Shown here piece by piece: positions 4,130 through 19,651 of a stretch of 19,651 bases of DNA. Position 1 is the stretch's first letter. Every line of letters starts with the position of its first letter. The translations under genes and the position numbers were made by a program. The DNA comes from Anaerolineae bacterium (lineage in GTDB: Bacteria; Chloroflexota; Anaerolineae; SpSt-313): positions 1-19,651 of the forward strand of contig DAOTVS010000329.1 of assembly GCA_034436375.1 (NCBI GenBank), given 5' to 3'. Below the pieces are notes generated by a model that worked only from the letters and a program-made list of their open reading frames with translations, did not search any database and was not told the origin of the DNA.

Positions 4130-4545
4130 CAATGCCTCCTCTTGTACAGGCGGAGCTCGTTGCCCTCGGGGCCACACCGAAAGACGAGGCGGTCGGTCAG
4201 CTTGCGCATAAAGTAGATGCCCAGGCCTCCGACCTGGCGTTCTTCCAGGCTGCATGTTGTATCGGGCTGAGGCGCCTCGTTAGGGTCAAAGGGGCGGCCC
4301 CGGTCGCGCAGAATCACGACCAGATCATCGCCCTCGATCTCGCAGCGGATGAGGATCTCGCCCGCTACGCCCGGTCCATAGGCATGCTGGATGATGTTGG
4401 TGCAGGCTTCATCGACCGCCATCTGCAGCTCGAATGCCCGCTGCTCATCGAGCCCCAGCGCGGCGGCGGCAGCCGTCACAAACTCGGCGATCTGCTCCAG
4501 GTTGGCCGGGTCGCTCGCGACCGCCAGTTCCAGGGGTTGCGCCAT
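4129..4545 (-). CDS. Anti-sigma regulatory factor, serine-protein kinase (RsbW/SpoIIAB-like GHKL ATPase)
   Basis: 138-aa ORF (minus strand) in the ORF track. Motifs ...AVDEACTNIIQHAY... and ...GGLGIYFMRKLTD... are characteristic of HATPase_c_2 anti-sigma kinases. Located between two STAS genes. Confidence 0.8.
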   Translation of the reverse strand: MAQPLELAVASDPANLEQIAEFVTAAAAALGLDEQRAFELQMAVDEACTNIIQHAYGPGVAGEILIRCEIEGDDLVVILRDRGRPFDPNEAPQPDTTCSLEERQVGGLGIYFMRKLTDRLVFRCGPEGNELRLYKRRH

Positions 4546-4560
4546 GTCGTGTCCCTTGCG

Positions 4561-4698
4561 GGCTATCAGCTATCGGTTGTCGGCTCTGGCCTCCATTCAC
4601 GCGACACTTGATGGTTGCGGGGGCCGCTATCGGCAGAGTTGGGCCAGCAAGCATCATCGCCGATGGAATAAGCTGATAGCTGATAGCCGATAGCTAGA
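4561..4698. repeat. Structured intergenic element. A 14-bp inverted repeat (GGCTATCAGCTATC at 4561-4574 / GATAGCTGATAGCC) flanks ~100 nt. It carries 6-7 copies of the hexamer GATAGC/GCTATC (tandem GCTGATAGCTGATAGCCGATAGCTAG at 4672-4698).
   Basis: Read directly from sequence. Lies between the STAS-2 stop (4694) and the kinase start (4545) inside a minus-strand operon. Confidence 0.6.
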
Positions 4699-5029
4699 AA
4701 CTACCTACCGCATCAACCGTCGTATCATAGCCTGCAAAGAGGACATCGAGCCCCGCCAGGCTCAGCACACCCTGGATGCGCTCGGGCACATTGGCCAGGC
4801 GCACGTCGCCACGGTTCCAGCGGCGCGACTCTTTCAGCGCGGCCACCAGCACGCGCAGGCCCGCGCTGGAAAGGTATTCCAGCCCCGTCATGTCGACGAC
4901 GATGTGGAAACGCCCCTGGTTCAGGATTCCCTGCAGCGCGTCTTCCAGGCGCGGGGCGCTGGCGCTATCGACACGTCCGCTGACCTCGACGACATCTACG
5001 CGTTTGAGCTGGCGAGTCTTGACTTCCAT
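4694..5029 (-). CDS. Second STAS-domain anti-sigma-factor antagonist
   Basis: MEVKTRQLKRVDVVEVSGRVDSASAPRLEDAL...HIVVDMTGLEYLSSAGLRVLV...GLDVLF shows the STAS fold. Start ATG 5029 is preceded by GAGGAGG. The ORF-track ORF (4694..5137) extends further upstream without an SD sequence. Confidence 0.75.
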   Translation of the reverse strand: MEVKTRQLKRVDVVEVSGRVDSASAPRLEDALQGILNQGRFHIVVDMTGLEYLSSAGLRVLVAALKESRRWNRGDVRLANVPERIQGVLSLAGLDVLFAGYDTTVDAVGSF

Positions 5030-5078
5030 AGGGCCTCCTCTGCCTCCAGGCAGAAAACTGTGAACCATAAACCGTAAT

Positions 5079-5112
5079 GCGTGATCCGTAATGCACGGAT
5101 TACGCATCACGC
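5079..5112. promoter_or_regulatory. 34-bp near-perfect palindrome GCGTGATcCGTAAT-gcacgg-ATTACGcATCACGC. A direct repeat of CCGTAATGC (5072 and 5087) precedes it and a small hairpin CTGCCT-CC-AGGCAG (5041-5054) follows.
   Basis: Read directly. It overlaps the stop codon of the ligase gene (5100-5102) and lies 50-80 bp upstream of the STAS-2 start. Locally AT-richer than the surroundings. Confidence 0.5.
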
Positions 5113-6635
5113 ACTTTCCGTGCGCCTTCCGCCGCACCTTCGACCAGCTTGGCCGTGACGATGCCCAGACCGATGATGAGCCAGAAGAGCGTCAGCATGT
5201 GCGAGAAACTGAAGAGCGTATGATCGAACACGCCGCCGGCCAGCCCCGCCGTGATCGACACCGCCGGCCCGATGATCCAGGGGGCCAGGGTGGGGTCGGC
5301 GCGGCCATGGCGCCAGGCGATCCAGGTGATGATGTAGAAGAGCGCCAGGGTGACCAGGTATGCGGCCAGGCCGATGACGCCCGTCTCTTCCGTAATCATC
5401 AGGTAGAGGTTCGATACGCCCACGTAGAGGTCAATATCGGGCGCATCTACAAAGCCGACCCCCAGCCAGGGGTAACGCTGGATGAGTATGAGTGCATCCT
5501 TGTACTCTCCAAAGCGCATCTGCGTGGCCCGGTCCTGCCCCTGCACGCCCTGCTCAAAGTGAGCCACATAGGCCTGTGTTTGGGGTAAGAGCAGGAGCAG
5601 CAGCGCCACCAGCGCAAGGGCCAGGAGCGCCTTGCGATAGCGCCCGATCAGCGACAGGATGGCAATGACTCCCACTGCCAGGCCCGCCAGCGATCCGCGT
5701 GAATAGGTCAGGAAGAGACACACCCCCGCCGAGGCGGCGGCTGCCAGCAGCCAGAGGCGCGGTATGAATGGCCGCCTCTCAAAGAGGTGCGGCGTTGCCA
5801 ACCCGAGGGTCAACGCCATGAGGGCGCCCAGGACGTTAGGGTCTACCGAGGTCGAGATGGCCCGCTGCGGCAGGCTCGGATCATCCTCGATATAGCGCAG
5901 TACGTCGGGCCCAGACGGGTAGCGAAAGATGCCCAGCGCCGAAAGCAGGCGGGTGCTCGTGGCGGGCGGCAGAAAGTAGAGCACAATGCCGATTGCCCCA
6001 GCCAACGCGCCGCCCAGGATCAGCCAGGTCGTCAGCTGCTGCACCTGGCGGCGTGTGCGCACCAGGTTCAGCACGGCAAAGAAAATCATAATGCCCAGGG
6101 GAATCTCGGCGAACTGGCGGAGTGCGGTAGCTGTCAATTGGGCATGGCCCAGGCCTGCGGCAAAGGCGCCCACCGTCGCCAGCGCGAAAATGGCCACAAA
6201 GGCCGAAATAGGCGAGGAAACCCAGCGCCCCTGCCGCCCGGTGGCGATCCGCGCTGCCCACACCAGGAACAGCATCCCCAGGGCCAGGTTCAGAAAGGTC
6301 GGCGAAAAGCCCACATTCAGCGGCAGAGTGCCAAAGGGCAGCAGATAGATGACCGCCACCGTGACCATGAGCGTGAAATCGGGGCTGCGCAGCATCAAAA
6401 GCGCCGCCGCCACGCCCACAACCAGCGCAGCCGCATAAAGCGGCGTCGCGAACGCCACCAGGGCCCCGGCCAGGGCGCCGGCAACCAGGCAAATGGCCAG
6501 CGTTACCAACAGAGACCCGATATCGCGACGCGCCAATACACGCTGCAGGACCAAAACGAGCGGCAAACCATTCACTCCTATTGTGAGGGGCAATACGCTG
6601 CCGGAAACACGCCCCGTGTCACGAAAGTGTAGCAC
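5100..6635 (-). CDS. O-antigen ligase / Wzy_C-family polytopic membrane protein
   Basis: 511-aa ORF with ~12 predicted TM helices. Motif ...LTYSRGSLAGLAVG... and a large periplasmic loop are typical of the O-antigen ligase/polymerase (RfaL/Wzy_C) family. The ORF track starts at a GTG without SD, so the true start may be internal. Confidence 0.65.
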   Translation of the reverse strand: MLHFRDTGRVSGSVLPLTIGVNGLPLVLVLQRVLARRDIGSLLVTLAICLVAGALAGALVAFATPLYAAALVVGVAAALLMLRSPDFTLMVTVAVIYLLPFGTLPLNVGFSPTFLNLALGMLFLVWAARIATGRQGRWVSSPISAFVAIFALATVGAFAAGLGHAQLTATALRQFAEIPLGIMIFFAVLNLVRTRRQVQQLTTWLILGGALAGAIGIVLYFLPPATSTRLLSALGIFRYPSGPDVLRYIEDDPSLPQRAISTSVDPNVLGALMALTLGLATPHLFERRPFIPRLWLLAAAASAGVCLFLTYSRGSLAGLAVGVIAILSLIGRYRKALLALALVALLLLLLPQTQAYVAHFEQGVQGQDRATQMRFGEYKDALILIQRYPWLGVGFVDAPDIDLYVGVSNLYLMITEETGVIGLAAYLVTLALFYIITWIAWRHGRADPTLAPWIIGPAVSITAGLAGGVFDHTLFSFSHMLTLFWLIIGLGIVTAKLVEGAAEGARKVRDA

Positions 6636-7101: not shown

Positions 7102-7198
7102 GGGGGTGGTTGAGTCCTGGTGGGCTCCGCGGTCTTCAAAACCGTCTGAGGGGCGCTGCTGAGGCGTCCCTGGTGGGTTCGACTCCCATCCACTCCCG
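7102..7198 (+). tRNA. selC: tRNA-Sec (selenocysteine), anticodon UCA
   Basis: Folded by eye. 8-bp acceptor stem (GGGGGTGG 7102-7109 / CCACTCCC 7190-7197, one G-U wobble). 6-bp D-stem with 4-nt D-loop (7112-7127). Anticodon loop CTTCAAA with TCA at 7136-7138. ~24-nt variable arm with a 6-bp stem (7150-7155 / 7165-7170). 5-bp T-stem with GTTCGACTC loop (7173-7189). Discriminator G7198. CC(A) is partly encoded. The 8/5 architecture plus the UCA anticodon is diagnostic of bacterial tRNA-Sec. Confidence 0.8.
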
Positions 7199-7659: not shown

Positions 7660-9003
7660 TTAGTGTGTGCTGATACGAATATCTCTGGCGATCTGTTCCA
7701 GAGTGCGGCGCCATGCCTCCCATTGCAGGGCGTCTGTAGGCATTTCGTTGGGCGACAGGGCCTCTTTGTAGGCGGTCGCCAGGGTATCCAGCGCCTTGGC
7801 CCACGCTTCGGCGCGCGCTGTGTCGATCTTTTGCACGGCCTCACCCTGGCGGTCTGCCACCCAGGTCCCTGTCGCCGCCTGCACGACCTCCTTTTCTGGT
7901 TGCACATTTTCGATGATGATCCTGTCGATCATCGTGCCGAAGGTCTGTGCGGCACGCCGGGCGCGCTGCAGCACCTGGCGCTCGAGATTGCGGTTATTCT
8001 GGGCTGCGCGCAGTTGGTTAAGATCCAGCCCCGCCACGATCGTGTGCACGCTCTCCGCCACGACGCTGTGTACGCCTCGCTGCCAATCGGGCATGAGCGA
8101 GTCTACCTTTTGGATCACGCTTTTTTCGGTATCATCAAAGGAGCCTGCCGGCGCTGGTTGATCCGGCCCCTGCTCCTGTTGCGAGCCCCTGCCTTTGTTG
8201 GCGTCCTCCGAAGCGCCCCCGCGAGCCGCGAGCGGCGAGATGTTAATGCGATAGGTCACCGCCATGACGATCGTGGTTGAGATCATGTCCTGCGTGAGGA
8301 CGTTGGGAAAGGTCCACTCCTCCTGCCGTGGCCGCAGGTCATAGATGCGTTTGATCTTCTCGGTGTGCTTGACTCCGGTCAGTTTGGCGGGGCCGCAGAT
8401 GCGCGTCTGTTTGCTCCCCTCCTCGAAAATGACGGCATTGTAGGGCTTGATGACGACCGTGCGCGGCGCTGTGGAGGATTTCTCCTTCATCGTGCTCCTG
8501 CCATCCTCGACCGTCTCTGTGACGTCGGCCACGCCGCGCAGGATCCTCCATTGATCCAGCATAGCGGCCCGCAGGCCTTTGTAAGAGCCGCGCGCAGCGC
8601 CGACCGTGAGCGTAAACATGATCAAGCCCGAAAGCGTGGCCAGGATGAGCCCCGGCAGGCCAAAGAGCCACAGGACAGCCGATAGCCAGATGGCGATGAT
8701 CGCCCCCGCCCACCTGGCCTGCGCGCCCCTGGTGCTGGAAAGGCTTATCGCGAGGAGGGCGCAGAAGAAAGCGAACGCGACAGCCCAACCAGGGAGTGGA
8801 GCGGCTTGGGCCTCGTCGGGGGCGTCCATGGTCGTGGCCTCTGCTCTCGCGCTCGGCATCGGGGGGGCAGTTGCGGTGTGAGCAGCAGCCACAGTTTGCG
8901 TTGGGCCAGGGGGTGTTGCGGGCGCGGGCTCTTGCCACAGTGTGACGATCACCGCGATGGCGAGCATCGCAACTGTGATGAGCACGATACGCGTTGTCTT
9001 CAT
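7660..9003 (-). CDS. SPFH/band-7 (stomatin/prohibitin/flotillin-like) domain membrane protein with an extended multi-TM N-terminus and a Pro/Ala-rich linker
   Basis: 447-aa ORF. SPFH-like core (VVIKPYNAVIFEEG...RICGPAKLTGVKHTEKIKRIYDLRPRQ...ISTTIVMAVTYRI) followed by a coiled-coil-like C-terminus. The N-terminus has 1 + 3 predicted TM helices. AGGAGA SD 10 nt upstream of ATG 9003. Confidence 0.6.
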   Translation of the reverse strand: MKTTRIVLITVAMLAIAVIVTLWQEPAPATPPGPTQTVAAAHTATAPPMPSARAEATTMDAPDEAQAAPLPGWAVAFAFFCALLAISLSSTRGAQARWAGAIIAIWLSAVLWLFGLPGLILATLSGLIMFTLTVGAARGSYKGLRAAMLDQWRILRGVADVTETVEDGRSTMKEKSSTAPRTVVIKPYNAVIFEEGSKQTRICGPAKLTGVKHTEKIKRIYDLRPRQEEWTFPNVLTQDMISTTIVMAVTYRINISPLAARGGASEDANKGRGSQQEQGPDQPAPAGSFDDTEKSVIQKVDSLMPDWQRGVHSVVAESVHTIVAGLDLNQLRAAQNNRNLERQVLQRARRAAQTFGTMIDRIIIENVQPEKEVVQAATGTWVADRQGEAVQKIDTARAEAWAKALDTLATAYKEALSPNEMPTDALQWEAWRRTLEQIARDIRISTH

Positions 9004-9081
9004 AGGACAGCATTCTCCTGCCCAGGCCAGGGTGGGCTTGCTCGGGACGAGGAGGATAGCCGATACCGTGGGATACTGTCT

Positions 9082-9110
9082 ATGATAACCCTTGCTGCAA
9101 CCTGTGTCAA
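9082..9110 (-). promoter_or_regulatory. Strong sigma-70-type promoter (minus strand): -35 TTGACA (9110->9105), 17-nt spacer, -10 TATCAT (9087->9082). It is ~75 nt upstream of the SPFH start.
   Basis: Reverse complement of 9080-9112 reads TTGACAcaggttgcagcaagggtTATCAT. Confidence 0.45.
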
Positions 9111-9294
9111 TTGCAGATCGTAGGGTGGGGTGTCATGGGTTAGCGCCGCCACAGGTGGATCGGGGCCGCGCTTGTGCGGAGCATATCAGCCGGCAACCGC
9201 CCGGAAGGGCCGTGGCGCTATTGGCAAGTCGGCGGGCAGCCAGGAGGCCAGCCTTTCCCCGGCCCTCCGGGCTGCCCGCCTGCCGGTGCCGGTG

Positions 9295-10464
9295 CTACCG
9301 CACCTCCACCACTTGGCCCGTCTGCGACGACTCGACAATGGCCGTTACGATCTGCGCCTGTTTGAGCCCGTCCACATGCGTGGGGAGTGGTCCGTTGCCC
9401 TGCCAGCCCTGGGGCTCCAGAGTCCCCTGCAGGATCGAATTGATCACCGGGCCGATGAGCGACATGAGGTTGCCACCGATGCCGGTGCGCTCTTCCAGAG
9501 CCGGCGAGAGCTGCCCACCGCCTGCCGCCAGTTGGCCAGTGCTCGGGTCCGGCCGGTGCAACAGCGCGGCCACGTTCACACCCATGGCCAGCAGGGCGTT
9601 CTGATGCGCGAGCAGTTGCTCGGGCGTTGTGCTGCGGGCCACATTGGCGCGCCAGCCCGAATCGGTGCCAAAGCCGCCGCGCTTGTTGTAGATGAGCGTG
9701 CCCTCGCTGCCCGAGAAGCACTGGTAGAACTCGACCAGCCCGTCCATGTGCTTGATCCACTCAGCCTTGACGCGCACCTTGAGCCCGCTGTCAAAGGTCA
9801 AAAAGGCATCGTACACGTCGGGGGTAAAGCCCAGCACCTGCTGCTGCGCAAAGGCATAGACCTCCGCCACCTCTGCGGGCGCCAGGTACCAGCGCAGGAG
9901 GTCTACCACGTGGCTGAGCAAAAAGTGGGCGGTGGAGGAGCCCGATGCCCACTCTTTGCTGCGGTTGCCCCACAGTGCAAGCGGCACGCTGATGTTGTCG
10001 TCGAGGCGCGACTCGGCGTGCACCACGCGCCCCAACAGGCCCTGCTGAATGACATAGTGGGTGGCGATATCCAGCGGCGCCGCCCGGTTGGCAAAGTTGA
10101 TGTAAAAGCGCGCGCCGTGCTTTTCCACCGCCTCGTAGATGGCCTCGGCATCCTCGCGGGTGGTGGCCAGGGGCTTTTCCTGGATGATATTGGGCACTCC
10201 CGCCTCAATGGCCGCCACAGTCGGCGCCCGGTGCAGGGGGTCGGGCGTGGCCACAGCCACCACATCGAGCGCATGCTTACGCAGCATCTCTTCATAGTCG
10301 GTATAGGCCTGCGCCCCCACCTCGGCCGCCACGCGCTCCGCCGCCTCGGCACGCACATCGGCCACCGCGACCACCTCGACAGCCGGATGCTGCCGGAAAA
10401 AGCGGGCATACTCGCTGCCCAGAATGCCCAGGCCGATCACACCGGCCTTGAGTTGCTTGCTCAT
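9295..10464 (-). CDS. Gfo/Idh/MocA-family NAD(P)-dependent oxidoreductase
   Basis: N-terminal Rossmann motif KAGVIGLGILGSEYARFF...VVAVADV and the family EKP motif (NIIQEKPLATT). Start ATG 10464 is preceded by GGGAGGAG. The ORF-track ORF extends to 10689 without support. A small hairpin CCCGG-CCCT-CCGGG at 9257-9270 lies downstream of the stop. Confidence 0.8.
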   Translation of the reverse strand: MSKQLKAGVIGLGILGSEYARFFRQHPAVEVVAVADVRAEAAERVAAEVGAQAYTDYEEMLRKHALDVVAVATPDPLHRAPTVAAIEAGVPNIIQEKPLATTREDAEAIYEAVEKHGARFYINFANRAAPLDIATHYVIQQGLLGRVVHAESRLDDNISVPLALWGNRSKEWASGSSTAHFLLSHVVDLLRWYLAPAEVAEVYAFAQQQVLGFTPDVYDAFLTFDSGLKVRVKAEWIKHMDGLVEFYQCFSGSEGTLIYNKRGGFGTDSGWRANVARSTTPEQLLAHQNALLAMGVNVAALLHRPDPSTGQLAAGGGQLSPALEERTGIGGNLMSLIGPVINSILQGTLEPQGWQGNGPLPTHVDGLKQAQIVTAIVESSQTGQVVEVR

Positions 10465-10688: not shown

Positions 10689-12932
10689 ATGGTTGCTAGG
10701 GAAAATGTGGCCGTCTCGGAGGCGCAGTCGGACTTGCGCTGGATGCTGGGGCAGTTGCGGGAACAGGCCGTTATGGCGGCCCTGGCTGCTCTCTATGTCG
10801 CTGGGATTCTCATCCTGGTGGCTGCGCCGCGGGCGACCACGATGGCGCAGGGTGTGTTGACGGGGTTCCTGTCTCTTATTGTGGGGGCAGCGGTATGGCT
10901 GGCACGCCGCAATCACTCTGTCTCGGCTTGGTTGATGGTGGGCGGCTGTGTGCTCGTAGTGCTCCTGACCGCGGCAGTCGAGCGGGTACCCGCGGCCGTC
11001 GTGCTGCTCATCCTGCCGGCAGGTCTGGCCGTGTTGGCGGTGGGCATTGCGGGCGGCCTCGTGACAGCGCTTCTTTGCAGTGTCCTCCTGCTCTTCCTGC
11101 CGGCGACGTCTCTGCCGGTCGGCGGGGACTTGCGCTTGGTGACCGGGCTCGCCGTCTGGGCCGTGGTGGGCATGATCTCGCTGGCGTTGCGCCTGTTGCT
11201 CACGGCCCTGGAGTGGTCCTGGGCCAGCTACCGCGAGAGCCACGGCCTGCTCGAACGTGCCCGAGACACCCACGTGCAACTCAAACAGGCACTTGCCGAT
11301 CTGACCGACGCCAACCTGCAGCTCACGCGCTTGAACCGGCTGACCCAAGCGCTCCGTCAGGCCGCCGAGGATGCGCGGCATGCCTCCGAGACTTTTGTGG
11401 CCAACGTATCTCACGAGTTGCGCACGCCCCTGAACATGATCATTGGTTTCAGCGAGATGATTCTGGATGCGCCGACTGCCTATGGCTGCAACTTGCCCGC
11501 GTCCTTGCTCGCCGATCTTGAGATTGTGCTGCGCAATAGCCAACACCTCTCCGGCTTGATCGACGACGTATTGGACCTGAGCCAGATCGAGGCCGGCCAG
11601 GTGGCACTGACCCGGGAGCGGGTAGTGCTGGCTGAGGTTGTGGATGCGGCGCTGGTGGCCGTGCGCCCTCTGTTCGAATCCAAAGGCCTGTACCTGGAGG
11701 CGGAGATTGACCCCGACCTGACCGCCTTTTGCGACCGTACGCGCATCCGTGAGGTGATCCTCAACCTGCTTTCCAATGCCGGGCGCTTTACAGAGCGCGG
11801 GGGCGCCCGGTTGCGCGCCTGGCGCGAGGGGGGTGATGCTGTGGTCAGCGTGACTGACTCTGGACCGGGCATCGCCGATGAGGACAAGGATAAGGTGTTC
11901 CGCCCCTTTCAGCAACTCGATGGCTCGCTGCGGCGGCGCTATGGCGGCTCGGGCCTGGGCCTCTCTATCAGCAGGAGCTTTGTGGAGATGCATGGCGGCA
12001 AAATGGGCTTCGAGAGTGAGCTCAGCGTCGGCACAACCTTTTACTTCCGCTTGCCGATAGAGCCGCCGACGCCAATCGTTGGGCCGCCCACACGCTGGCT
12101 AAGCGCTGAGTGGCACTATGAGGAGCGGACGCGACGCCCGCTGCCTGCGGCGCTGGCGGTGCGCCCCCGTTTTGTGCTGGTGGAAACGGGCACCTCGCTG
12201 CGGCGCCTGCTTGCCCGCTACTGGGATGAGGTCGAGCTGGTGCCGGCCGGCAGCCTTGAAGAGGGGCTGCACGAGTTGGCACGTGTGCCGGGGCAGGGGC
12301 TTTTGGTTAACGATACACGCGTAGGCGAGGTGTTGCAGCGCCTCAGCGCCTCCGACCTGCCTTACGGCACGCCGATTATGGTCTGCTCGGTGCCTGGCCT
12401 GGCTGAGGCAGCGCATGCCTTGGGGGCACTGCAATACCTGGTCAAGCCGGTGGCGCGTGAAGACTTGCTGGGGGCGCTGGACGACCTTTCTTTGGTAGGA
12501 AAGACCGTACTGATCGTGGATGATGAGCCCGATGCCCAGAGACTTTTCTGGCGGATGCTCTCTACGTCGGGGCGTGGCTACCGGGTTCTCACTGCCGGCA
12601 ATGGCCGTGAAGCCCTGTCGATCCTGCGCGGTGACCAGCCCGATGTGGTATTGCTGGATCTGGTCATGCCCGATATGGACGGTTTCCAATTGTTGGCGAC
12701 AATGCGCAATGATCCGGCCCTTTGCGCCATCCCGACGGTAGTCATCTCCGCACAAGATCCGACGGGTCAGCCTATCATCACTAACACCTTGACTGTTACG
12801 CGCCGCGGGGGGCTTTCGGCGCCGCAGCTCCTGGCCTGCTTGCAGGGGCTGACTCAGATCCTCTCGACGGGCGGGCCATCTCGCGGTCCAGAGCCGCCAG
12901 CAGCGCCGAGCGACTCACCGGCTTGCGTATGA
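10689..12932 (+). CDS. Hybrid sensor histidine kinase / response regulator. Contains ~5 N-terminal TM helices, a coiled coil, HisKA (H-box VSHELRTPLN), HATPase_c, a degenerate receiver-like domain, and a C-terminal receiver domain (VLIVDDEPD...VVLLDLVMPDMDG).
   Basis: 747-aa ORF. ATG 10689 preceded by GAGGAG. Domain motifs read from the translation. Confidence 0.85.
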   Translation: MVARENVAVSEAQSDLRWMLGQLREQAVMAALAALYVAGILILVAAPRATTMAQGVLTGFLSLIVGAAVWLARRNHSVSAWLMVGGCVLVVLLTAAVERVPAAVVLLILPAGLAVLAVGIAGGLVTALLCSVLLLFLPATSLPVGGDLRLVTGLAVWAVVGMISLALRLLLTALEWSWASYRESHGLLERARDTHVQLKQALADLTDANLQLTRLNRLTQALRQAAEDARHASETFVANVSHELRTPLNMIIGFSEMILDAPTAYGCNLPASLLADLEIVLRNSQHLSGLIDDVLDLSQIEAGQVALTRERVVLAEVVDAALVAVRPLFESKGLYLEAEIDPDLTAFCDRTRIREVILNLLSNAGRFTERGGARLRAWREGGDAVVSVTDSGPGIADEDKDKVFRPFQQLDGSLRRRYGGSGLGLSISRSFVEMHGGKMGFESELSVGTTFYFRLPIEPPTPIVGPPTRWLSAEWHYEERTRRPLPAALAVRPRFVLVETGTSLRRLLARYWDEVELVPAGSLEEGLHELARVPGQGLLVNDTRVGEVLQRLSASDLPYGTPIMVCSVPGLAEAAHALGALQYLVKPVAREDLLGALDDLSLVGKTVLIVDDEPDAQRLFWRMLSTSGRGYRVLTAGNGREALSILRGDQPDVVLLDLVMPDMDGFQLLATMRNDPALCAIPTVVISAQDPTGQPIITNTLTVTRRGGLSAPQLLACLQGLTQILSTGGPSRGPEPPAAPSDSPACV

Positions 12933-14118
12933 AAGCGGCCGCCCCCAGCGATAGCGCTAGCTGCTCCTGTGGCAGGATCGTGCAGACGATCACGGGCACT
13001 CCCGTCGTCTGCGGATGCTCGCGCAGCCTACCCAGCAACTCCCAGCCGTCTATGCCGGGCAGCATCACATCGAGCACGATGATCCGGGGAGCGAGTTCGC
13101 GGGCCAGCGCAAGCGCCTGTGCGGGGTCGCGAGCGCCCATGAACGGGTAGCGGGTGCCGGCCAGGTAGCGCTGGAAGAGGTGCAAGGTATCCGCATTGTC
13201 ATCGATCACCAGCACCGCTGCCTGCTCGGCGATGGGCAACGCCAGGATGGCCTTGAAGGGCTGGGATCCGGCTTCATCGGGCACGATCGACAGGACTCCT
13301 CCTGAGAGCCCTACCAGCTGGCGGGCCATCTCCAGGTTGTCGAGCACGTCGCCTGTAGCCGGCCCCATGTCGCCGTGATGGGAGGTAGGGGTAATGCGAA
13401 TCAGCGCCTGATGCTCTTGCTCCTCGATCTCGATGCGGATCGTGCCGCCGGGCACGGCGCGAATAGCCGCGGTGAGGATGTTCAGGCAGGCCTGGCGCAG
13501 TGATGCTACCTGCACAGCTACGCGAGGCAGACCCTGCGGCAGCGCACAGTCGATTCGCACCTGCAAGGCACGGGTGAGTGGTATCACGATCTGGAGCAGC
13601 CCATCGATCAACCCCTGTACGTCCGCAGCTTCGTTGGGCAGGGTCTTTTCCAGCCATTGCAATTCTTCCTCACGGCTGGGGATGGCCTCCGCGTCGCTAG
13701 GCTCATCGCTTGCGCCATTCTCGCTCTCTTCACCCAACAGGGCATCCAGGTGCAGATCATAGTGCACGGCCAAGTAATCGGCCAGCACGCGCAAGGCCAG
13801 GCTCTCCTGGCGGCGCATCTGGCGCAGGCTCAGCCCCAGGGTTGTCGCTACCTCTTGTTGGCTGAACTGATCGACGTAGCGGTGAGTGAGTGTGCGGTAG
13901 GAGCGCCATTCGCTCGATTGCAGCGAGGCATCGGCATCCGGCTTGAGTGCCTCGATGGCTTCGATCAACACCTTGCGCAGCCTGGATGGGCTTTCCTGGG
14001 GCTGCAGGCGGAGCAGTGGCCACAGCGGGCTGGCACGAAGGGCTGCCGGATCGTAGAGGTGCAGCATTGTCCTCCGTAGCGCCCGCAGAAAGGAAACTTC
14101 GGGGGGATTCTCATTCAT
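12796..14118 (-). CDS. Atypical regulator. N-terminal sigma-70-region-4-like HTH (FSQQEVATTLGLSLRQMRRQESLALRVL), a central degenerate GHKL/HATPase-like domain (N-box LNILTAAIRA, no H-box), and a C-terminal receiver domain (VLVIDDNADT...IIVLDVMLPGIDG...FIRKP).
   Basis: Part of ORF 12796..14505 (minus strand). Start assigned to ATG 14118 (MNENPP...), with GGAGAGG ~14 nt upstream. An alternative start at 14268 is possible. Confidence 0.6.
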   Translation of the reverse strand: MNENPPEVSFLRALRRTMLHLYDPAALRASPLWPLLRLQPQESPSRLRKVLIEAIEALKPDADASLQSSEWRSYRTLTHRYVDQFSQQEVATTLGLSLRQMRRQESLALRVLADYLAVHYDLHLDALLGEESENGASDEPSDAEAIPSREEELQWLEKTLPNEAADVQGLIDGLLQIVIPLTRALQVRIDCALPQGLPRVAVQVASLRQACLNILTAAIRAVPGGTIRIEIEEQEHQALIRITPTSHHGDMGPATGDVLDNLEMARQLVGLSGGVLSIVPDEAGSQPFKAILALPIAEQAAVLVIDDNADTLHLFQRYLAGTRYPFMGARDPAQALALARELAPRIIVLDVMLPGIDGWELLGRLREHPQTTGVPVIVCTILPQEQLALSLGAAAFIRKPVSRSALLAALDREMARPSRGSESAPASRPGAAAPKAPRGA

Positions 14119-14185
14119 CGTGACCACATGGCCTCTCCGTGGCCTCTTTTTGGCCTGCACTTGCAGACAGGTACCGATTGGAGTG

Positions 14186-14210
14186 TTATACTGTACAGCA
14201 TACTGTACCA
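14186..14210. promoter_or_regulatory. Operator-like element in the divergent promoter region: direct repeat ATACTGTAC x2 (14188-14196, 14200-14208) with embedded perfect palindrome CTGTACAG (14191-14198). It overlaps a -10-like TATACT.
   Basis: Read directly. It lies between the divergent regulator (start 14118) and the ABC operon (start 14303). Confidence 0.45.
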
Positions 14211-14302: not shown

Positions 14303-15781
14303 ATGGAACCCAAGAAGCTATCGCGGCGTGATTTCCTCCGTTGGAGTGCTCTGCTGGCCGGGGTAGCCACCCTGGCAGCCTGTGCACCAGCCAAGCCGAC
14401 AGAGTTGCCCACGGTGGCCGCGAGCGCGGCGAGCGCCACCACCGCCCCCGAAGCGACGGCTGCCTCGGCCGAGCCAACGGGGACCCAGGCTGCCGAGCCC
14501 ACCACAGCCCCGGCGACCGAGGCACCCTCTTTGGCTGGCGAGATCGAGTATTTCTCCTATGATCTGGGGCCGGCCAACAAATCGCGCGAGGAGATTGCCA
14601 ATGCCTTCCAGGCGGCCAACCCCGGCAGCAAAGTCAAGCTCACGGTCCTGCCCTATGGCGATAACTGGAACAAACTGGCCGCACTCATGGCTGCCGGCAC
14701 CCCGCCTGATGTGATCTATGGCGATTTCTCCCTCCTCAAGTATGCCCTGGCCGGCCAGCTGCTCGATCTGACGGAGCAGTTCAATGCCGATCCGGTGCTG
14801 AGCAAGCCCGACCTCTTCACCATGGATATGCGTGATCCCATCCAGGCCAAGTTTGGCACATCGCATCTCTATAATCTCGTCCTGGGCACCTGGGTCCCTG
14901 TGTTGTATTACAACCGCGACATCTTCGATGCTGCCAGCCAGTCCTATCCAGACGACAAGTGGACTTGGGAGGATCTGCGGGCCGTCGCCAAGAAGCTGAC
15001 GGATCCAGCCAAGCAGCAGTGGGGTGTGCAGTTCGGTACCACCCTCGACACCGTCGGCTGGCTCTGGTGGCAGCACCAACCCAAGGATTTCTGGGCAATC
15101 CCCCAGATCTTCCCCGAAAAGACCGATTTCAACAACGAGGTTGGGCTGGACGTCTTCTCCTTCTGGTATAACCTGGGCTCACAGGACAAGTCTGCTGTGC
15201 CGTTTTCTGAGATGGGGTCTTTCCAAGCCTACGGCGCTGCCTTTGGCGCCGGCAAAGCGGCTATGGTTATTGGCGGCGATTGGGATGCCGGCTGGGGGTA
15301 CCGCGAGCTGCCCTTCAAGTGGGGCGTGACCTACCTGCCCACCGTCAAGAAAGACTACCGGCCAGCCCTCAACTGCATGGTGGCCACCTCGACCATTGCG
15401 GCCGCCACCAAGCAGCCGGCACTGGCCTGGCAGTTCGCCCGCTTTATGTCGGCGTCGACCGAAGGCCAGACCCTGATCGGTGAGGGCGCCTACGAGACCC
15501 CCGTGCTCAAGGACGTCGCCCATTCCGACGCCGTTCTCAAGCCAAGTTGGGGGGCACCGGGATATGACGTGCGCGTCAAGGCGGCGGAGTTGCCGGGGCC
15601 TATGTACTGCCCCTATCCGCTGGACATGGATCTGTGGGAGTTCCCCTCCAAGCACTTCGATCCGACCGTGCAAAAGCTCTCGACAGGCGAGATGAAGCCC
15701 GAAGAGGCTGTGGCCTATCTCGACAAAGAAGGCACCCCCTACTTTGCCGAGATGACGAAGAACATGCCGCCCATCAAGTGA
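14303..15781 (+). CDS. ABC transporter substrate-binding lipoprotein (extracellular solute-binding family 1 / CUT1-type) with a Tat/lipoprotein signal (RRDFLRWSALLAGVATLAAC)
   Basis: ATG 14303 preceded by AAGGAG (11 nt upstream). Signal peptide with twin-arginine motif and lipobox Cys. A Thr/Ala/Pro-rich linker follows. The remaining ~440 aa are typical of family-1 SBPs. Confidence 0.85.
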   Translation: MEPKKLSRRDFLRWSALLAGVATLAACAPAKPTELPTVAASAASATTAPEATAASAEPTGTQAAEPTTAPATEAPSLAGEIEYFSYDLGPANKSREEIANAFQAANPGSKVKLTVLPYGDNWNKLAALMAAGTPPDVIYGDFSLLKYALAGQLLDLTEQFNADPVLSKPDLFTMDMRDPIQAKFGTSHLYNLVLGTWVPVLYYNRDIFDAASQSYPDDKWTWEDLRAVAKKLTDPAKQQWGVQFGTTLDTVGWLWWQHQPKDFWAIPQIFPEKTDFNNEVGLDVFSFWYNLGSQDKSAVPFSEMGSFQAYGAAFGAGKAAMVIGGDWDAGWGYRELPFKWGVTYLPTVKKDYRPALNCMVATSTIAAATKQPALAWQFARFMSASTEGQTLIGEGAYETPVLKDVAHSDAVLKPSWGAPGYDVRVKAAELPGPMYCPYPLDMDLWEFPSKHFDPTVQKLSTGEMKPEEAVAYLDKEGTPYFAEMTKNMPPIK

Positions 15782-15789
15782 TCGCCTAT

Positions 15790-15824
15790 GGTGGGAGGTG
15801 GGGCGGGCTGCCCCATCTCCCACC
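15790..15824 (+). terminator. GC-rich stem-loop GGTGGGAG-GTGGGGC-GGGC-TGCCCCAT-CTCCCACC immediately 3' of the SBP gene
   Basis: Inverted repeat read directly. No T-tract. The position (between the SBP and permease genes) is typical of intra-operon attenuators that set SBP:permease stoichiometry. Confidence 0.3.
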
Positions 15825-15909
15825 ACCACCACCGGCGGCCGGCCGGCAGGGATGCGCCTGGCCCGTGGCGACGCCCTCTGGCCGGTTGCTGGAGCTCGAG
15901 GAGGCAAGT

Positions 15910-16860
15910 GTGCAACTCGACCGCGCTCTCAAGCCGGCGGGCCCGCGGGCCAACGCCCATCGCTTTCGCCTGTCTCTGCAGCGTCGTGAAGCGATCGCCT
16001 GCGCGTTGTTCATTGCGCCAGCCGTGCTGGGTTTCCTGGTATTCTCGCTCTTTCCTCTCCTGACCTCCGCCGCTCTGAGTCTGACCGACTACCACCTGGC
16101 GGGGTGGCCCCGCTATGTGGGACTGGCCAACTATGCGACGCTGTTCGGGGACGACCTGTGGTGGCAGGCCGTGCGCGTCACGGGCATCTATGCCCTCTGT
16201 GTCGTGCCCCTCTGGCTCATCAACTCCCTCGCTCTGGCGCTGCTGATGAACCAGAACCTCCGCGGCATGAACGTCTTTCGTACCATCTACTACCTGCCGG
16301 CGATGCTCTCGGGGGTAGCGGTCTCGATGCTGTGGATCTGGTTGCTCAGCTATCGCTACGGGCTGATCAACACCTCGCTCCGCCTGGTGGGCGTCCAGGG
16401 ACCCAACTGGGTGGGCGACAAGCGCTGGGCGCTTTTCTCCATCATCCTGATGAGCCAGTGGAGTGTTGGCTGGTACCTGCCTACCTGGCTGGGGGCGCTG
16501 CAGAATATCCCGACTGAGCTCTACGAGGCCGCCTCCATCGACGGCGGCGGGTGGTGGGCTCGCATCCGCTATATCACCCTGCCCATGCTCAGCGCGGTGA
16601 TCTTTTACAACCTGATCATGAACATCATCTGGGCCACTCAGCTTTTCACCGAAGTGTTCATGGTGACGGGAGGAGGTCCCCAGTTCAGCACCCTCAGCTA
16701 TATGCTCTACCTCTACAACAATGCCTTTGGTTACTCCAAGATGGGCGTAGCTTCGGCCATGAGTTGGCTGTTGTTCCTCGCCGTCCTCCTGCTGACGATC
16801 GCCGTGTTCCGGTCGAGCCCGGCGTGGGTCTACTATGAGGCGGAAAGGAGGCGCGCCTGA
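15910..16860 (+). CDS. ABC transporter permease (MalF/UgpA-like, 6 TM, with EAA-loop region ...YEAASIDGGGWWARIRYITLP...)
   Basis: In-frame GTG 15910 preceded by GAGGAGG (6-nt spacer). The ORF-track ORF 15634..16860 has no Met before this. Stop TGA overlaps the next gene's ATG (TGATG). Confidence 0.75.
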   Translation: MQLDRALKPAGPRANAHRFRLSLQRREAIACALFIAPAVLGFLVFSLFPLLTSAALSLTDYHLAGWPRYVGLANYATLFGDDLWWQAVRVTGIYALCVVPLWLINSLALALLMNQNLRGMNVFRTIYYLPAMLSGVAVSMLWIWLLSYRYGLINTSLRLVGVQGPNWVGDKRWALFSIILMSQWSVGWYLPTWLGALQNIPTELYEAASIDGGGWWARIRYITLPMLSAVIFYNLIMNIIWATQLFTEVFMVTGGGPQFSTLSYMLYLYNNAFGYSKMGVASAMSWLLFLAVLLLTIAVFRSSPAWVYYEAERRRA

Positions 16861-17744
16861 TGAGCACTCCCACGCGGGCTACCCTGCCGCGCCAGCCTTT
16901 CTGGAGCCGGCGCATGCGCCGGACGCTCTTGAAGGTCCTGACCTACTTGGCACTGGTCACGGGTAGCCTCCTCTTCCTGTTCCCGCTGTACTGGCAGGTC
17001 AGCACCTCGCTCAAGACCGCGCAGGATACTGTGCGCTTCCCGCCAGTGTGGTTTCCCGTGCCTCTACAGTGGGGGAACTATCCTGAGCTGTTGCACCGTT
17101 TCCCCTTTGCCCTCTATATGCGCAACTCGGTGTTCATTAGCGCCCTGGTCATCCTGGGTACGCTGCTCTCCAGTTCGTTGGCAGCCTATGGCTTCGCCCG
17201 CCTGCGCATGCCGGGGCGCGATATCATCTTTATGGTCCTGCTCTCTACCCTTATGCTGCCGGGCGCCGTGCTGCTGATCCCACAGTTCGTCATGTTCCAG
17301 AGCCTGCACTGGGTCAACACCTACAACCCGCTCATCGTGCCGGCTTTCTTCGGGAATCCGTTCTCCATCTTTCTAATGCGCCAGTTCTTCATGGGCGTTC
17401 CGCACGATCTGGAAGATGCGGCACGCATCGATGGCGCCGGCTACCTGCGTACTTACGGTCAGATCGTTCTACCCCTGGCGCGCCCGGCTCTGCTGGCCGT
17501 GGCGATCTATACCTTCCTGAGCACCTGGAACGACTTTCTCGGCCCTCTGATCTACCTGAGCGACGAGCAAAAGTACACAGTGGCCGTAGCCCTGCGTTAC
17601 CTTCAAGGCAGTGTGCGCACCCGACCAGAGAACCACCTGCTCATGGCGGCGGCGACGCTTTCCATTATCCCATGCGTCCTGGTCTTCTTCTTTGCCCAAA
17701 GGCAATTCATCCAGGGTACAGTGATCTCGGGGGTGAAAGGGTAG
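16860..17744 (+). CDS. ABC transporter permease (MalG/UgpE-like; EAA motif ...DLEDAARIDGAGYLRTYGQIVLPLARPAL...)
   Basis: 294-aa ORF. One-nucleotide overlap with the upstream permease gene. Typical CUT1 inner-membrane component. Confidence 0.85.
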   Translation: MSTPTRATLPRQPFWSRRMRRTLLKVLTYLALVTGSLLFLFPLYWQVSTSLKTAQDTVRFPPVWFPVPLQWGNYPELLHRFPFALYMRNSVFISALVILGTLLSSSLAAYGFARLRMPGRDIIFMVLLSTLMLPGAVLLIPQFVMFQSLHWVNTYNPLIVPAFFGNPFSIFLMRQFFMGVPHDLEDAARIDGAGYLRTYGQIVLPLARPALLAVAIYTFLSTWNDFLGPLIYLSDEQKYTVAVALRYLQGSVRTRPENHLLMAAATLSIIPCVLVFFFAQRQFIQGTVISGVKG

Positions 17745-17803
17745 ACGCACACCAGATTTTGAGTCTTTGAAGCTTACTCTTAAATGAAGAATGGATATAA
17801 GCT

Positions 17804-19258
17804 ATGACCCATAGCAGAAGCGAACCTTTCTACATGCGTATCTTGAGCGATGCGGAGATTGAGCGCATCTACGACGGCGCGGTGCACGTGCTGTTGCAGA
17901 CTGGCTTTCGCGTGCAGCACCGGGGGCTGCTGGAGCGCCTCGAAAAGCGCGGCGCCCGGGTGGACTATGCGCGCGAGGTCTTTTGGCCGACACCGGAGAT
18001 GATCCGCGAAGTGGAAGCCAGCGCGCGCCGTGGGGCAGGGGAGCCTGCACCCGAGCCTGTGCTGCGCCGGCCCCTGCCGCAGGGCCAACGCGTGGGCTAT
18101 AACGGCACGCTCTACTATGACTGGACAGAGGGCATCCAGCGCCCGGCGACCCTGCAGGACGTGCGCGATATGGTCAAGGTCTGCCACGCCCTGCCCGAGG
18201 TGACGGCGCTGGGACCCTGCATGACGGCCCAGGATGTGCCCTCGCCGGTCGAGCCCCTCGTGAGCTTTGCTGAGGCCATCAAGCTCTCGGATCGGGCAAC
18301 CGTCGGGGTGGAGTTGATCCTGCCGGAGCAACTCCCCTACCTGGAGGAGCTCTTTACCATCGCCCGCGGCGAGCAGGTCTACTACCGTTCCGACGGCTAT
18401 GCCCTCAACCGCTTCACCGTCGATGCCCGAGCTGCCGGCTGCCTGATGGCGATTTGGGAGCGGCGTGGCCTGGAAAGCTGGGCGGTGAGCAGTTGCCCGG
18501 TGGCCGGCGCGAGCGCTCCGGTCACGATTGCCGGGTCCATTGTGGTCGCTGTCGCTGAAACGTTGGGCGCTTGGTGCGCGCCCTGGGCCCTGAGCGAGGA
18601 CTGCCACCTCGGCGCCATCCCTTGCTCGGGTATCATGGATATGCGCACTACGCGCGTTCTCTTTAGCACACCGGAGGCCATTCTGATCGATGTGGGCCTC
18701 TACCAGGTGCTGGACCGTGTGCTTGGTGTCAAGACAGGCATGCTTACCGACTATACCGACGCCAAGGTGCCTGGCCTGCAGGCCATGAACGACAAGGTCT
18801 TCAAGGGTCTGGCCTACAACTGGCTCACCAGCCGGCCTGACCGGCAGCACCGGGGCATGCTCGAAGCGGGCAAAGCCTTCTCCCCGACCCAACTCATGAT
18901 CGATTTCGAGCTTAACCGGGAGTTGGCCCAACTGGCGCGCGGTGTGGAGGTGAACGACGATACCCTCGCCCTCGATGAGATTGCCGCCATCGGTCTTGAC
19001 CATGCACGCTCGTACCTGGACGAGGAACATACCTTCCGCCATTTCCGGTCGGAGCTCTGGTCGCCCGAATTGATGGACCGCACCTGTTGGGACACATCTA
19101 CGGAGGAGCGGCGCAAGGAACAGGCCCTGCTGCACCAGGCCGAGGAAAAGTGGCGAGCCGCACTTGCTCGCTATGAGCAACCCGCGGTTCCAGCGGAGAA
19201 GATCCGCGCCGCCGAGGCGGTGGTGGCGCGGGCAAAGCGGGCCATGGGAGTCTGCTAG
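17804..19258 (+). CDS. MttB-superfamily (trimethylamine methyltransferase-like, non-pyrrolysine) methyltransferase
   Basis: 484-aa uninterrupted ORF. The N-terminus (MRILSDAEIERIYDGAVHVLLQTGFRVQHRGLLERLEKRGARVDY), overall length and the C-terminal helical region match MttB-family proteins. No in-frame TAG. Preceded by an unusually AT-rich leader. Confidence 0.75.
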   Translation: MTHSRSEPFYMRILSDAEIERIYDGAVHVLLQTGFRVQHRGLLERLEKRGARVDYAREVFWPTPEMIREVEASARRGAGEPAPEPVLRRPLPQGQRVGYNGTLYYDWTEGIQRPATLQDVRDMVKVCHALPEVTALGPCMTAQDVPSPVEPLVSFAEAIKLSDRATVGVELILPEQLPYLEELFTIARGEQVYYRSDGYALNRFTVDARAAGCLMAIWERRGLESWAVSSCPVAGASAPVTIAGSIVVAVAETLGAWCAPWALSEDCHLGAIPCSGIMDMRTTRVLFSTPEAILIDVGLYQVLDRVLGVKTGMLTDYTDAKVPGLQAMNDKVFKGLAYNWLTSRPDRQHRGMLEAGKAFSPTQLMIDFELNRELAQLARGVEVNDDTLALDEIAAIGLDHARSYLDEEHTFRHFRSELWSPELMDRTCWDTSTEERRKEQALLHQAEEKWRAALARYEQPAVPAEKIRAAEAVVARAKRAMGVC

Positions 19259-19354
19259 GTCGCAGCCCCGGGCCATCACCTTGATTCCCTCCGTAAATGG
19301 TCAATGCTTGGCCCATCATTGGCGTAACCACACTCATAGGGGCGCTGGTTCCCG

Positions 19355-19360
19355 TATAAT
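19355..19360 (+). promoter_or_regulatory. Perfect TATAAT hexamer (possible -10) 80 nt upstream of the second MttB gene. Followed by hairpin GGCCTG-N15-CAGGCC (19369-19395).
   Basis: Read directly. The -35 is weak (ACTCAT). Confidence 0.3.
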
Positions 19361-19440
19361 AGAGACACCGGCCTGGGAGCATCGCGTGTGCAGGCCTTGC
19401 AGGGTCCCCAGGACCTGCTGGCCTCCGTAGGAAGGATGAC

Positions 19441-19651
19441 ATGATACGATCGCCGCATGAGATGAGATTATTCACGGACGATGAGTTGGAGCGATTGCAC
19501 CAGGGGGCGCTCGCCATCCTGGCCGACCCGGGCATGAAGATCATGGCCCCGTCGCTGCTGGCCGCTTTGGAGGAGCACGGTGCCCGGGTTGACCATGGTC
19601 GGCAGGTTGTCCGCTTTCCGGGGCGTCTGGTGGAAGAGACCCTGGCCGGGA
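19441..19651 (+). CDS. Second MttB-superfamily methyltransferase paralog (partial, 5' end only)
   Basis: MIRSPHEMRLFTDDELERLHQGALAILADPGMKIMAPSLLAALEEHGARVDHGRQV... parallels the N-terminus of the upstream MttB gene (F-x-DxE-ER-I/L-hxxAL-IL...G-xxV...LLxxLExxGARVD). GGAAGGA SD upstream. Truncated by the window end. Confidence 0.65.
   Translation, partial: MIRSPHEMRLFTDDELERLHQGALAILADPGMKIMAPSLLAALEEHGARVDHGRQVVRFPGRLVEETLAG

Follow-up and report, generated by a model that had tools for sequence, protein, structure and literature searches.

Thousands of non-pyrrolysine homologues of the methyltransferase MttB have no assigned substrate. The closest described systems to the one considered here are those of Desulfitobacterium hafniense, in which MtgB (2QNE/9YCE) acts with MtgC and MtgA, and of Methanosarcina barkeri, in which MttB (7XCL/7XCN) is accompanied by MttC and MtbA. 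MtgB carries a betaine-binding motif composed of Tyr97, Arg312, His348 and Phe356, and its Arg312 is kept in all characterized quaternary-amine enzymes of the MttB family (PMC13080624). The active-site residues of the M. barkeri MttB are Gly110, the pyrrolysine Pyl334 and Tyr364 (PMC9842639). In Eubacterium limosum, the substrate-specific MttB enzymes, MtqC and MtqA/RamQ are encoded in separate clusters (PMC8604678), while the MtgB of Ruegeria works with a shared MtgC/MtgD core (PMC12478193), and another uncharacterized MttB clade is tied to split MetH modules (PMC9324843). Our literature search found no report linking MttB homologues to sugar catabolism. Here, we describe a 19,651-nucleotide stretch from an Anaerolineae bacterium (contig DAOTVS010000329.1 of assembly GCA_034436375.1; hereafter, the window), which ends with two MttB-superfamily genes, MttB1 and MttB2, located downstream of a sugar-type ATP-binding cassette (ABC) importer. 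The two genes represent two subfamilies, A and B, whose genomic link to a sugar/amino-sugar module is reproducible across at least four phyla, which makes a new substrate class for the family testable.

Like the D. hafniense MtgB, MttB1 belongs to the MTTB Pfam family, is predicted to form a TIM barrel (TM score of 0.79, E 8e-28), lacks pyrrolysine and has an equivalent of Tyr97. However, the two proteins are only ~22% identical, Arg312, His348 and Phe356 are not conserved, and there is neither an adjacent corrinoid protein nor an adjacent methyl-tetrahydrofolate methyltransferase. The genetic context is one of sugar catabolism rather than C1 metabolism. The M. barkeri system likewise shares the MttB fold; the parallels extend to subfamily B, which keeps Gly110 and often Tyr364, as well as to the pairing of an MttB-like gene with a URO-D/MtaA-like gene in related loci, much as MttB is paired with MtbA. 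In contrast to that system, the loci described here have Tyr in place of pyrrolysine, no UAG codon and no MttC-type corrinoid protein, their URO-D-like partner lacks the zinc-thiolate site, and they are sugar operons of bacterial hosts. The MtpB, MtcB and MtyB genes of E. limosum and the mtgB of Ruegeria pomeroyi provide a further parallel, being located apart from a shared corrinoid protein and second methyltransferase (PMC8604678, PMC12478193). Those enzymes use acidic quaternary amines, keep the Arg312 equivalent and are unlinked to glycosidases or sugar kinase/aldolase genes. An analogy, and only an analogy, can also be drawn with the moc cluster of Sinorhizobium, which catabolizes the rhizopine 3-O-methyl-scyllo-inosamine and employs the oxygenase MocDEF for demethylation. 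That cluster similarly combines a solute-binding protein (SBP) and a GFO/IDH/MocA dehydrogenase with the demethylation of a methylated, amine-bearing cyclitol or sugar, but it has no MttB, URO-D, GH4, FGGY or DhnA aldolase genes.

The assignment of both genes to the MttB superfamily, which an earlier note had proposed from the sequence of the window, is supported by profile searches. MttB1 scores 154.5 bits against Pfam MTTB (PF06253; cutoff 25 bits, E 3e-45, profile positions 30-500) and the 70-codon fragment of MttB2 scores 32.9 bits (E 2.4e-8). MttB1 falls below the cutoff of TIGR02369, the equivalog model of the pyrrolysine-containing trimethylamine methyltransferase MttB (155.8 bits, cutoff 525). 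An AlphaFold2 model of MttB1, for which 47 homologues were aligned, has a pLDDT of 92.3 and a pTM of 0.90, and Foldseek matches it to MtgB (9YCE/2QNE), MttB (7XCL/7XCM/7XCN) and 4YYC, a Sinorhizobium MttB homologue, with E values of 1e-24 to 1e-28 and TM scores of 0.76-0.80. These are its only significant structural neighbors, as the next, unrelated PDB match has an E value of 6e-3. Within the GC-rich sequence of the window (about 0.58-0.70), MttB1 is encoded by a single, uninterrupted open reading frame lacking an in-frame amber codon. The earlier statement that neither gene contains such a codon is therefore seen directly for MttB1, while for MttB2 it derives from full-length orthologues with Tyr at the pyrrolysine position.

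The same note regarded the two genes as paralogues. Two MttB genes do stand in tandem, but they are not recent duplicates. The MttB2 fragment is 66% identical to the N-terminus of an MttB-B protein from a related locus (L005; such loci are cited by their L numbers) and 57% identical to that of L006, and these 489-aa proteins share ~29% identity with MttB1. MttB1 and MttB2 belong to two old, deeply diverged subfamilies, A and B, respectively. When an A profile was compared with 1.84 billion 50%-identity cluster representatives, only two clusters exceeded 500 bits, below which the scores fall continuously to ~230 bits, where subfamily B begins. The two subfamilies also exhibit opposite preferences among the described enzymes, since A scores higher with MtgB (95 bits) than with MttB (49 bits), whereas B scores higher with MttB (131 bits) than with MtgB (105 bits). 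Subfamily A is mainly encoded by Anaerolineae metagenome-assembled genomes (MAGs) with a few representatives among the Lentisphaerae and Acetivibrionales. Subfamily B is larger (>470 word-sharing relatives) and is distributed among Anaerolineae, Actinobacteria, Lentisphaerae, Terriglobia, Phycisphaerae and Armatimonadota. At least eight contigs encode members of both subfamilies. In the window, the two genes are separated by a 182-bp gap containing a perfect TATAAT hexamer (19356-19361) with no convincing -35 box; MttB2 might be expressed from a promoter of its own.

To compare active sites, 52 A sequences and 105 B sequences were aligned with MtgB and MttB, and pocket positions were mapped from this alignment. 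The pyrrolysine column is occupied by Tyr in 52/52 A and 104/105 B sequences; in MttB1, this residue is Tyr317 within the motif YTDAK. The columns of Arg312 and Phe356 are similarly uniform, with the former replaced by Gly/Ala and the latter by Gly in every A and B sequence, while at the shared column of Tyr97 and Gly110, subfamily A has His or Tyr and subfamily B has Gly (105/105). The MttB Tyr364 is kept in 61/105 B sequences. MttB1 itself has Tyr, Gly, Arg/Gln and Gly at the positions of Tyr97, Arg312, His348 and Phe356, and thus retains one of the four motif residues. Because the betaine motif of MtgB is absent, a non-betaine substrate is likely for these proteins, in agreement with what the earlier note had suggested as a possibility. 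The residues found throughout the superfamily (D119, G235, P239, E252, D279, E291, D319, Q326, G351, S360 and T410) are nonetheless retained, which argues for a conserved core function, whereas conservation of D106, E170, Y194 and Y317 is restricted to the two subfamilies. We read this pattern as a conserved core function that would be combined with a different substrate pocket. The replacement of pyrrolysine by Tyr also extends to 34 of the 45 nearest 50%-identity clusters, which makes A and B part of a broad, uncharacterized "Tyr-for-Pyl" radiation.

The window ends within MttB2, and all four contigs with an identical MttB1 stop within ~70 bp of the window end. The segment 19471-19645 is 96.6% identical to the end of L027 (8423-8597, 175 nt), where the upstream context is different and the regulator gene lies directly divergent to the 5' stretch of MttB-B. 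Since this near-identical stretch stands in another context, the 5' region of MttB-B is a repeat that breaks assemblies and the contig break is an assembly artefact of paralogy. This indicates either the existence of near-identical MttB-B paralogues or recombination between clusters. The continuation of the operon can be seen in syntenic loci. In L018, an Anaerolinea sp. MAG, the MttB-A is 73% identical to that of the window and is accompanied by the same kinase, regulator, SBP and permeases. The regulator gene, on the opposite strand, is followed by genes for the SBP, two permeases, MttB-A, MttB-B, a GH4 glycosidase, a second A-type MttB, a DeoC/DhnA-type aldolase, an AraA-like isomerase, an FGGY kinase and a class-III aminotransferase. 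L014 and L026 share this gene order, and in L026 the sequence goes on with genes for a GFO/IDH/MocA oxidoreductase and a URO-D-family protein. From the synteny with these three loci, we infer that the window covers the control region and the first (5') genes of a conserved operon for carbohydrate/amino-sugar catabolism, and not a canonical mtgBCA operon, an arrangement whose presence downstream the earlier note had named as evidence against its proposal. A GFO/IDH/MocA-family gene is also encoded within the window, upstream of the kinase, and such genes occur near the MttB modules of L026, L022, L033, L038, L039 and a 155-kb JGI contig. The GFO/IDH/MocA gene of the window may accordingly belong to the module.

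The association of MttB genes with sugar catabolism is also apparent in more distant organisms. Pattern-based scans of genomes and metagenomes yielded 7 and 15 loci, respectively, and neighborhoods were counted over ~22 independent loci with usable flanks. An AraA/FucI-like isomerase, FGGY kinase or class I aldolase is encoded in 15 of these, a CUT1 SBP together with permeases in 11, and a glycosidase (GH4, GH29, GH38 or DUF4185) or CE15-like esterase also in 11. A URO-D/MtaA-like gene is found in 10, subfamilies A and B co-occur in 8 and a DeoR regulator is present in most. The module, which often includes an aminotransferase, spans Chloroflexota, Lentisphaerota, Acidobacteriota and Armatimonadota. 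In L033, the genes are arranged as DeoR, GH4, URO-D, MttB-A, isomerase, MttB-B and aldolase, and in L021 (Armatimonadota) as DeoR, aldolase, MttB-B, isomerase, URO-D, FGGY and MFS. The order in L038 (Lentisphaerota) is DeoR, aminotransferase, GFO, aldolase, MttB-B, isomerase, URO-D, GH4 and URO-D, with more genes following, while that of L039 (Terriglobia, Acidobacteriota) is DeoR, aminotransferase, GFO, aldolase, isomerase, AA_permease, MttB-B, FGGY and URO-D. With 66% (L038) and 62% (L039) identity to the L018 protein, the aminotransferases of these two loci are orthologues that have stayed with MttB-B across phyla. Among the other partners, the GH4 protein is AglA-like, the aldolase resembles MJ0400/LsrF and the isomerase is a distant relative of L-arabinose isomerase.

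Some loci exhibit additional neighbors of MttB-A. A GH29-like alpha-L-fucosidase gene and an ADP-ribosylglycohydrolase-like gene are found in L016 (5268-7919), as assigned by eye from open reading frame translations rather than by a profile search. L008 encodes a CE15/glucuronoyl-esterase-like protein (8707-9783), and DUF4185 genes are located beside MttB-A in L012 (11475-12641) and L025. These neighbors hint at different glycan sources for a presumed methylated sugar. We also considered whether unannotated open reading frames of 186-197 aa beside the MttB genes of L006 and L020 might encode a new partner, and rejected this, as they are the N-terminal halves of frameshifted genes: a URO-D-like gene in L006 (11507-12582) and a DUF4432 gene in L020 (11473-12478). 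Both belong to assemblies with "contig_N" names, and the split genes are probably long-read indel errors rather than pseudogenes.

The importer encoded upstream of MttB1 further supports a sugar-type substrate. As the earlier note had described, a Tat-exported (twin-arginine translocation) lipoprotein SBP and two permeases are encoded on one strand, with the permease genes overlapping by 1 nt (TGATG), and this arrangement was borne out by the Pfam matches, motifs and coordinates. The start codon of permease 1 was set by comparison with orthologues. The SBP belongs to SBP_bac_1 (E 4e-31), just exceeds the TAT_signal cutoff (22.8 bits versus 22.7) and shows an Ala/Thr/Pro-rich linker in addition to an RRDFLRW motif and an LAAC lipobox. 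An SBP_bac_1 protein accompanied by two MalFG/UgpAE-type permeases is the composition of a CUT1 importer. The best NCBIfam matches of the permeases are to UgpA/UgpE and MalF/MalG, all far below the cutoffs. The nearest solved relatives of the SBP are oligosaccharide binders, namely Lmo0181 (5F7V, E 8e-25) and 4QRZ (E 1e-20), and not ProX/OpuAC, which favors the sugar-type over the betaine-type transporter, as had been supposed. With CUT1 oligosaccharide systems, for which Lmo0181 and 4QRZ are examples, the importer of the window shares the SBP_bac_1 fold family, two MalFG/UgpAE permeases and the lack of a dedicated ATPase gene, all typical of CUT1 systems in monoderms, whereas its SBP differs in its greater length (492 aa), its Tat signal, lipobox and linker, and its genetic coupling to MttB-A. 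The latter is recurrent: SBP orthologues of 54-96% identity adjoin MttB-A in L013, L014, L015, L018, L019, L025, L029, L032 and L036, and the SBP subfamily accompanies MttB-A in at least 11 independent loci. No gene for a MalK/MsiK-type ABC ATPase was found in the window or in the syntenic loci. The importer ATPase is encoded elsewhere in the genome, as is usual for CUT1 systems of Gram positive-type (monoderm) bacteria, which use a shared ATPase.

Based upon these features, we tentatively favor, with a confidence falling slightly short of even, the reading that the system takes up and breaks down a methylated glycoside, probably one that bears an amine, and that its MttB proteins serve as demethylases. 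The earlier note's idea that the two proteins might deal with successive methyl groups is speculative. An alpha-linked glycoside would be imported by the CUT1 system and subsequently cleaved by GH4. The TIM barrels of MttB-A and MttB-B would then hold the methylated group, with Tyr replacing pyrrolysine and conserved Asp/Glu residues replacing the betaine-binding Arg and Phe, and the methyl group would pass to the Co(I) center of a corrinoid carrier whose gene would lie elsewhere. For the URO-D-like protein, two roles are conceivable, that of the second methyltransferase and that of an ether-cleaving methyltransferase. The freed amine would be removed by the aminotransferase, possibly together with the GFO oxidoreductase, and the sugar skeleton would enter central metabolism through the isomerase, kinase and aldolase. 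An N-methyl group on an amino sugar or amino polyol is favored over an O-methyl group, because N-demethylation is the known chemistry of the family and because the conserved partners include the aminotransferase, and also because an amino-acid-type permease is present in one lineage (L039) and the conserved Asp/Glu could hold a protonated amine.

Several observations weigh against this interpretation. None of the catabolic genes is seen in the window itself; they are assigned to the operon by synteny at 73% identity. The placement of D106 and E170 in the pocket derives from alignment mapping rather than from coordinates, and the NCBIfam and PDB matches of the isomerase, kinase, aldolase and GH4 proteins are all far below equivalog cutoffs, such that the identity of the sugar is not derivable from them. 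The most conspicuous difficulty is the corrinoid partner. The earlier note had remarked that the window contains no cognate corrinoid protein or methyl-corrinoid:tetrahydrofolate methyltransferase, and the Pfam analysis agrees: the window yielded no corrinoid protein, no pterin-binding methyltransferase and no activase of the RamA type, nor was a B12-binding protein or either of the other two found in any of ~40 loci (~470 kb). A scan of 432 kb for the motif DxHxxG..SxL..GG returned only out-of-frame, GC-rich junk, a separate scan of L038 and L039 returned nothing, and PF02310 and PF02607 never occur in the Pfam lists of the related loci. Similarly, when the window and six of the loci were scanned with Rfam, neither a cobalamin riboswitch nor any other regulatory RNA was detected, the only match being a tRNA-Sec, and no corrinoid-domain fusion was seen in the MttB-B or URO-D-like families. 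The URO-D-like partner does resemble MtaA/CmuA (TIGR01463, 96 bits with a cutoff of 235; PDB 4AY7, E 6e-10), but in place of the zinc site of MtaA/MtbA, His-x-Cys...Cys, it has an invariant FHSDG (His-Ser-Asp), and among 100 sequences of its family no Cys is conserved at ≥95%. The absence of a corrinoid gene from the locus is not decisive, because distal encoding is known from E. limosum (PMC8604678) and Ruegeria (PMC12478193).

These same absences lead us to consider chemistry other than methyl transfer. The operon and its carbohydrate substrate could be as described above, with the MttB-like and URO-D-like barrels catalyzing a corrinoid-independent reaction, such as isomerization, epimerization, elimination, hydrolysis or decarboxylation. 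The lack of a corrinoid protein in ~40 loci of at least four phyla, even though "MT1-like" and "MT2-like" genes are kept together, would fit this scenario, as would the loss of both the MtgB substrate motif and pyrrolysine, the replacement of the zinc-ligand Cys of MtaA with no conserved Cys in the 100 URO-D-like sequences, and the lack of corrinoid-domain fusions. Conversely, the superfamily-wide MttB residues are retained, distal corrinoid genes have precedent (PMC8604678, PMC12478193), and no member of either family is known to have such an activity, nor did our literature search find one. We regard this scenario as somewhat unlikely overall. A second scenario retains methyl transfer but directs it to the O-methyl group of a neutral sugar or cyclitol, for example 2-O-methyl-fucose, 3-O-methyl-rhamnose, a 6-O-methyl-hexose or a pinitol-type compound, in which case the MttB-like and URO-D-like proteins would be oxygen-independent, ether-cleaving methyltransferases that replace P450/Rieske demethylases. 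The carriers are mainly anaerobic polysaccharide degraders (Anaerolineae, Lentisphaerae and Acetivibrionales), GH29 fucosidase, GH38, DUF4185 and CE15-like genes adjoin the MttB genes in some loci, and the isomerase-kinase-aldolase logic suits deoxy-hexoses. Furthermore, the URO-D-like protein weakly matches 9RUI, the CdmB of Acetobacterium malicum subsp. dehalogenans, which we take to be an O-demethylase component given the ether-cleaving methyltransferases of that organism. However, aliphatic alkoxides are poor leaving groups, ether cleavage is not known for any MttB member, no Lewis-acid metal site was identified, and the conserved class-III aminotransferase as well as the amino-acid-type permease of L039 point to an amine. 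We consider this scenario quite improbable. Even so, O-methylated sugars or cyclitols and a chemistry of both barrels other than methyl transfer are serious alternatives to the N-methyl glycoside that we favor.

The most conventional expectation, that these proteins are classical non-pyrrolysine MttB enzymes that demethylate a small quaternary amine and that the link to sugar genes is secondary, appears to be the least probable and we consider it very doubtful. The substrate in this case would be a betaine-, choline- or carnitine-like compound, or glycerophosphocholine delivered by a UgpB-like CUT1 system. It is true that the characterized non-pyrrolysine members all use quaternary amines (PMC13080624, PMC8604678), that the Tyr97 equivalent of MtgB is kept in MttB1 and that the permeases score best with UgpA/UgpE, though far below the cutoffs. 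Yet, throughout subfamilies A and B, the carboxylate-binding Arg312 is replaced by Gly/Ala and the cation-pi residue Phe356 by Gly, the SBP is similar to oligosaccharide binders rather than to ProX/OpuAC or UgpB, and the conserved partners are GH4, isomerase, FGGY kinase and aldolase, with no glycerophosphodiesterase or betaine genes among them.

The findings presented here suggest that methylated sugars are a new substrate class for the MttB family in anaerobic polysaccharide degraders. This bears on an ecological gap, namely the oxygenase-independent demethylation of methylated sugars by strict anaerobes. Furthermore, the consistent absence of a corrinoid protein, combined with the altered motifs in both of the methyltransferase-like partners, raises the possibility of new chemistry. 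A more far-reaching proposition is that the Tyr-for-pyrrolysine MttB radiation and its cysteine-less URO-D/MtaA-like partner constitute an N-/O-methyl (amino) sugar demethylase that operates without a dedicated corrinoid protein, which would require either free cobamide as a shuttle or a new, cofactor-independent mechanism. We consider this proposition unlikely, but were it true, it would provide anaerobic polysaccharide degraders with an oxygen-independent route of glycan demethylation.

Table 1. Features of the window associated with the MttB genes, their importer and their control.
Feature	Position	Strand	Basis
GFO/IDH/MocA-family NAD(P) oxidoreductase	9295..10464	-	Pfam GFO_IDH_MocA, E 2e-28
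Hybrid histidine kinase, membrane protein, HisKA-HATPase_c-REC	10689..12932	+	Pfam
Atypical response regulator, helix-turn-helix, HATPase-like middle part and C-terminal REC	12796..14067 (alternative start 14118)	-	Pfam
Candidate operator, three direct TGGCC repeats with ~11-bp spacing (ATGGCCTCTCCGTGGCCTCTTTTTGGCC)	14129..14157	.	Pattern scan
Sigma-70-like promoter candidate of the transporter-MttB operon	14164..14192	+	Consensus match only, 9/12, with TG extension
SBP, Tat-exported lipoprotein of the CUT1 (sugar-type) ABC importer, 492 aa	14303..15781	+	Pfam, motifs and structure matches
ABC permease 1 (UgpA/MalF-like)	15910..16860	+	BPD_transp_1, E 4e-12; UgpA 100.7 bits, below cutoff
ABC permease 2 (UgpE/MalG-like)	16860..17744	+	BPD_transp_1, E 1e-18; UgpE 143.8 bits, below cutoff
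MttB1, MttB-superfamily protein of subfamily A, 484 aa	17804..19258	+	Pfam, fold and alignment
MttB2, MttB-superfamily gene of subfamily B, first 70 codons	19441..19651	+	Ended by the contig end

The MttB genes of the window are accompanied by regulatory genes and a candidate operator (Table 1). The regulator, for which gene models of 423 aa and 490 aa can be drawn, is transcribed divergently from the transporter. It had been described as a divergent helix-turn-helix/HATPase/REC protein, of which the divergent orientation and the REC domain (E 2e-18) are clear, whereas the N-terminal, sigma70-region-4-like helix-turn-helix is weak (Sigma70_r4, 18.8 bits, below the cutoff) and the HATPase-like middle part is degenerate and marginal, with HATPase_c being detectable only in the L018 orthologue (E 0.001). 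The L015 orthologue does pass the threshold for Sigma70_r4_2 (26.1 bits, cutoff 25.7). Orthologues of the hybrid kinase (57-61% identity) are found beside the same regulator and an MttB cluster in L018, L014 and L027, and the pair of kinase and regulator also adjoins MttB genes in L027 and L015; the kinase is likely the sensor partner of the regulator. The 3' ends of these two genes overlap convergently by ~137 bp (12796-12932), which is unusually long, and the same overlap occurs in L018, L014 and L027.

The intergenic region between the regulator and the SBP contains a triple TGGCC repeat with helical spacing. When the pattern TGGCC-N5-7-TGGCC-N5-7-TGGCC was scanned over 432 kb on both strands, matches were confined to the regulator/SBP intergenic regions of the window, L005 (844-872), L014 (1805-1833) and L018 (3293-3321), in the form TGGCC-N6/7-TGGCC-N6-TGGCC. 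A terminator-like match at 14127-14141 was reassigned to this conserved repeat. The -10 box of the adjacent promoter candidate, TATACT, is conserved in L005. We regard the kinase, the regulator and the TGGCC repeat as part of the MttB/importer system, in which the regulator would presumably bind the repeat.

The remainder of the window contains two features of separate interest. A tRNA-Sec gene (7102-7197, plus strand; Rfam RF01852, 71 bits, E 3e-12) is flanked by genes of the Wzy_C and Band7/SPFH types. Its presence means that selenocysteine is used by the organism, in keeping with life as an anaerobe. Additionally, a partner-switching module that is unrelated to the MttB genes occupies 231-5137 on the minus strand. 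It comprises a 1242-aa protein (231-3959) that combines four GAF domains with a phosphatase domain of the SpoIIE/PP2C type, as well as two STAS-domain, anti-sigma-antagonist-like genes (3752-4255 and 4694-5137).

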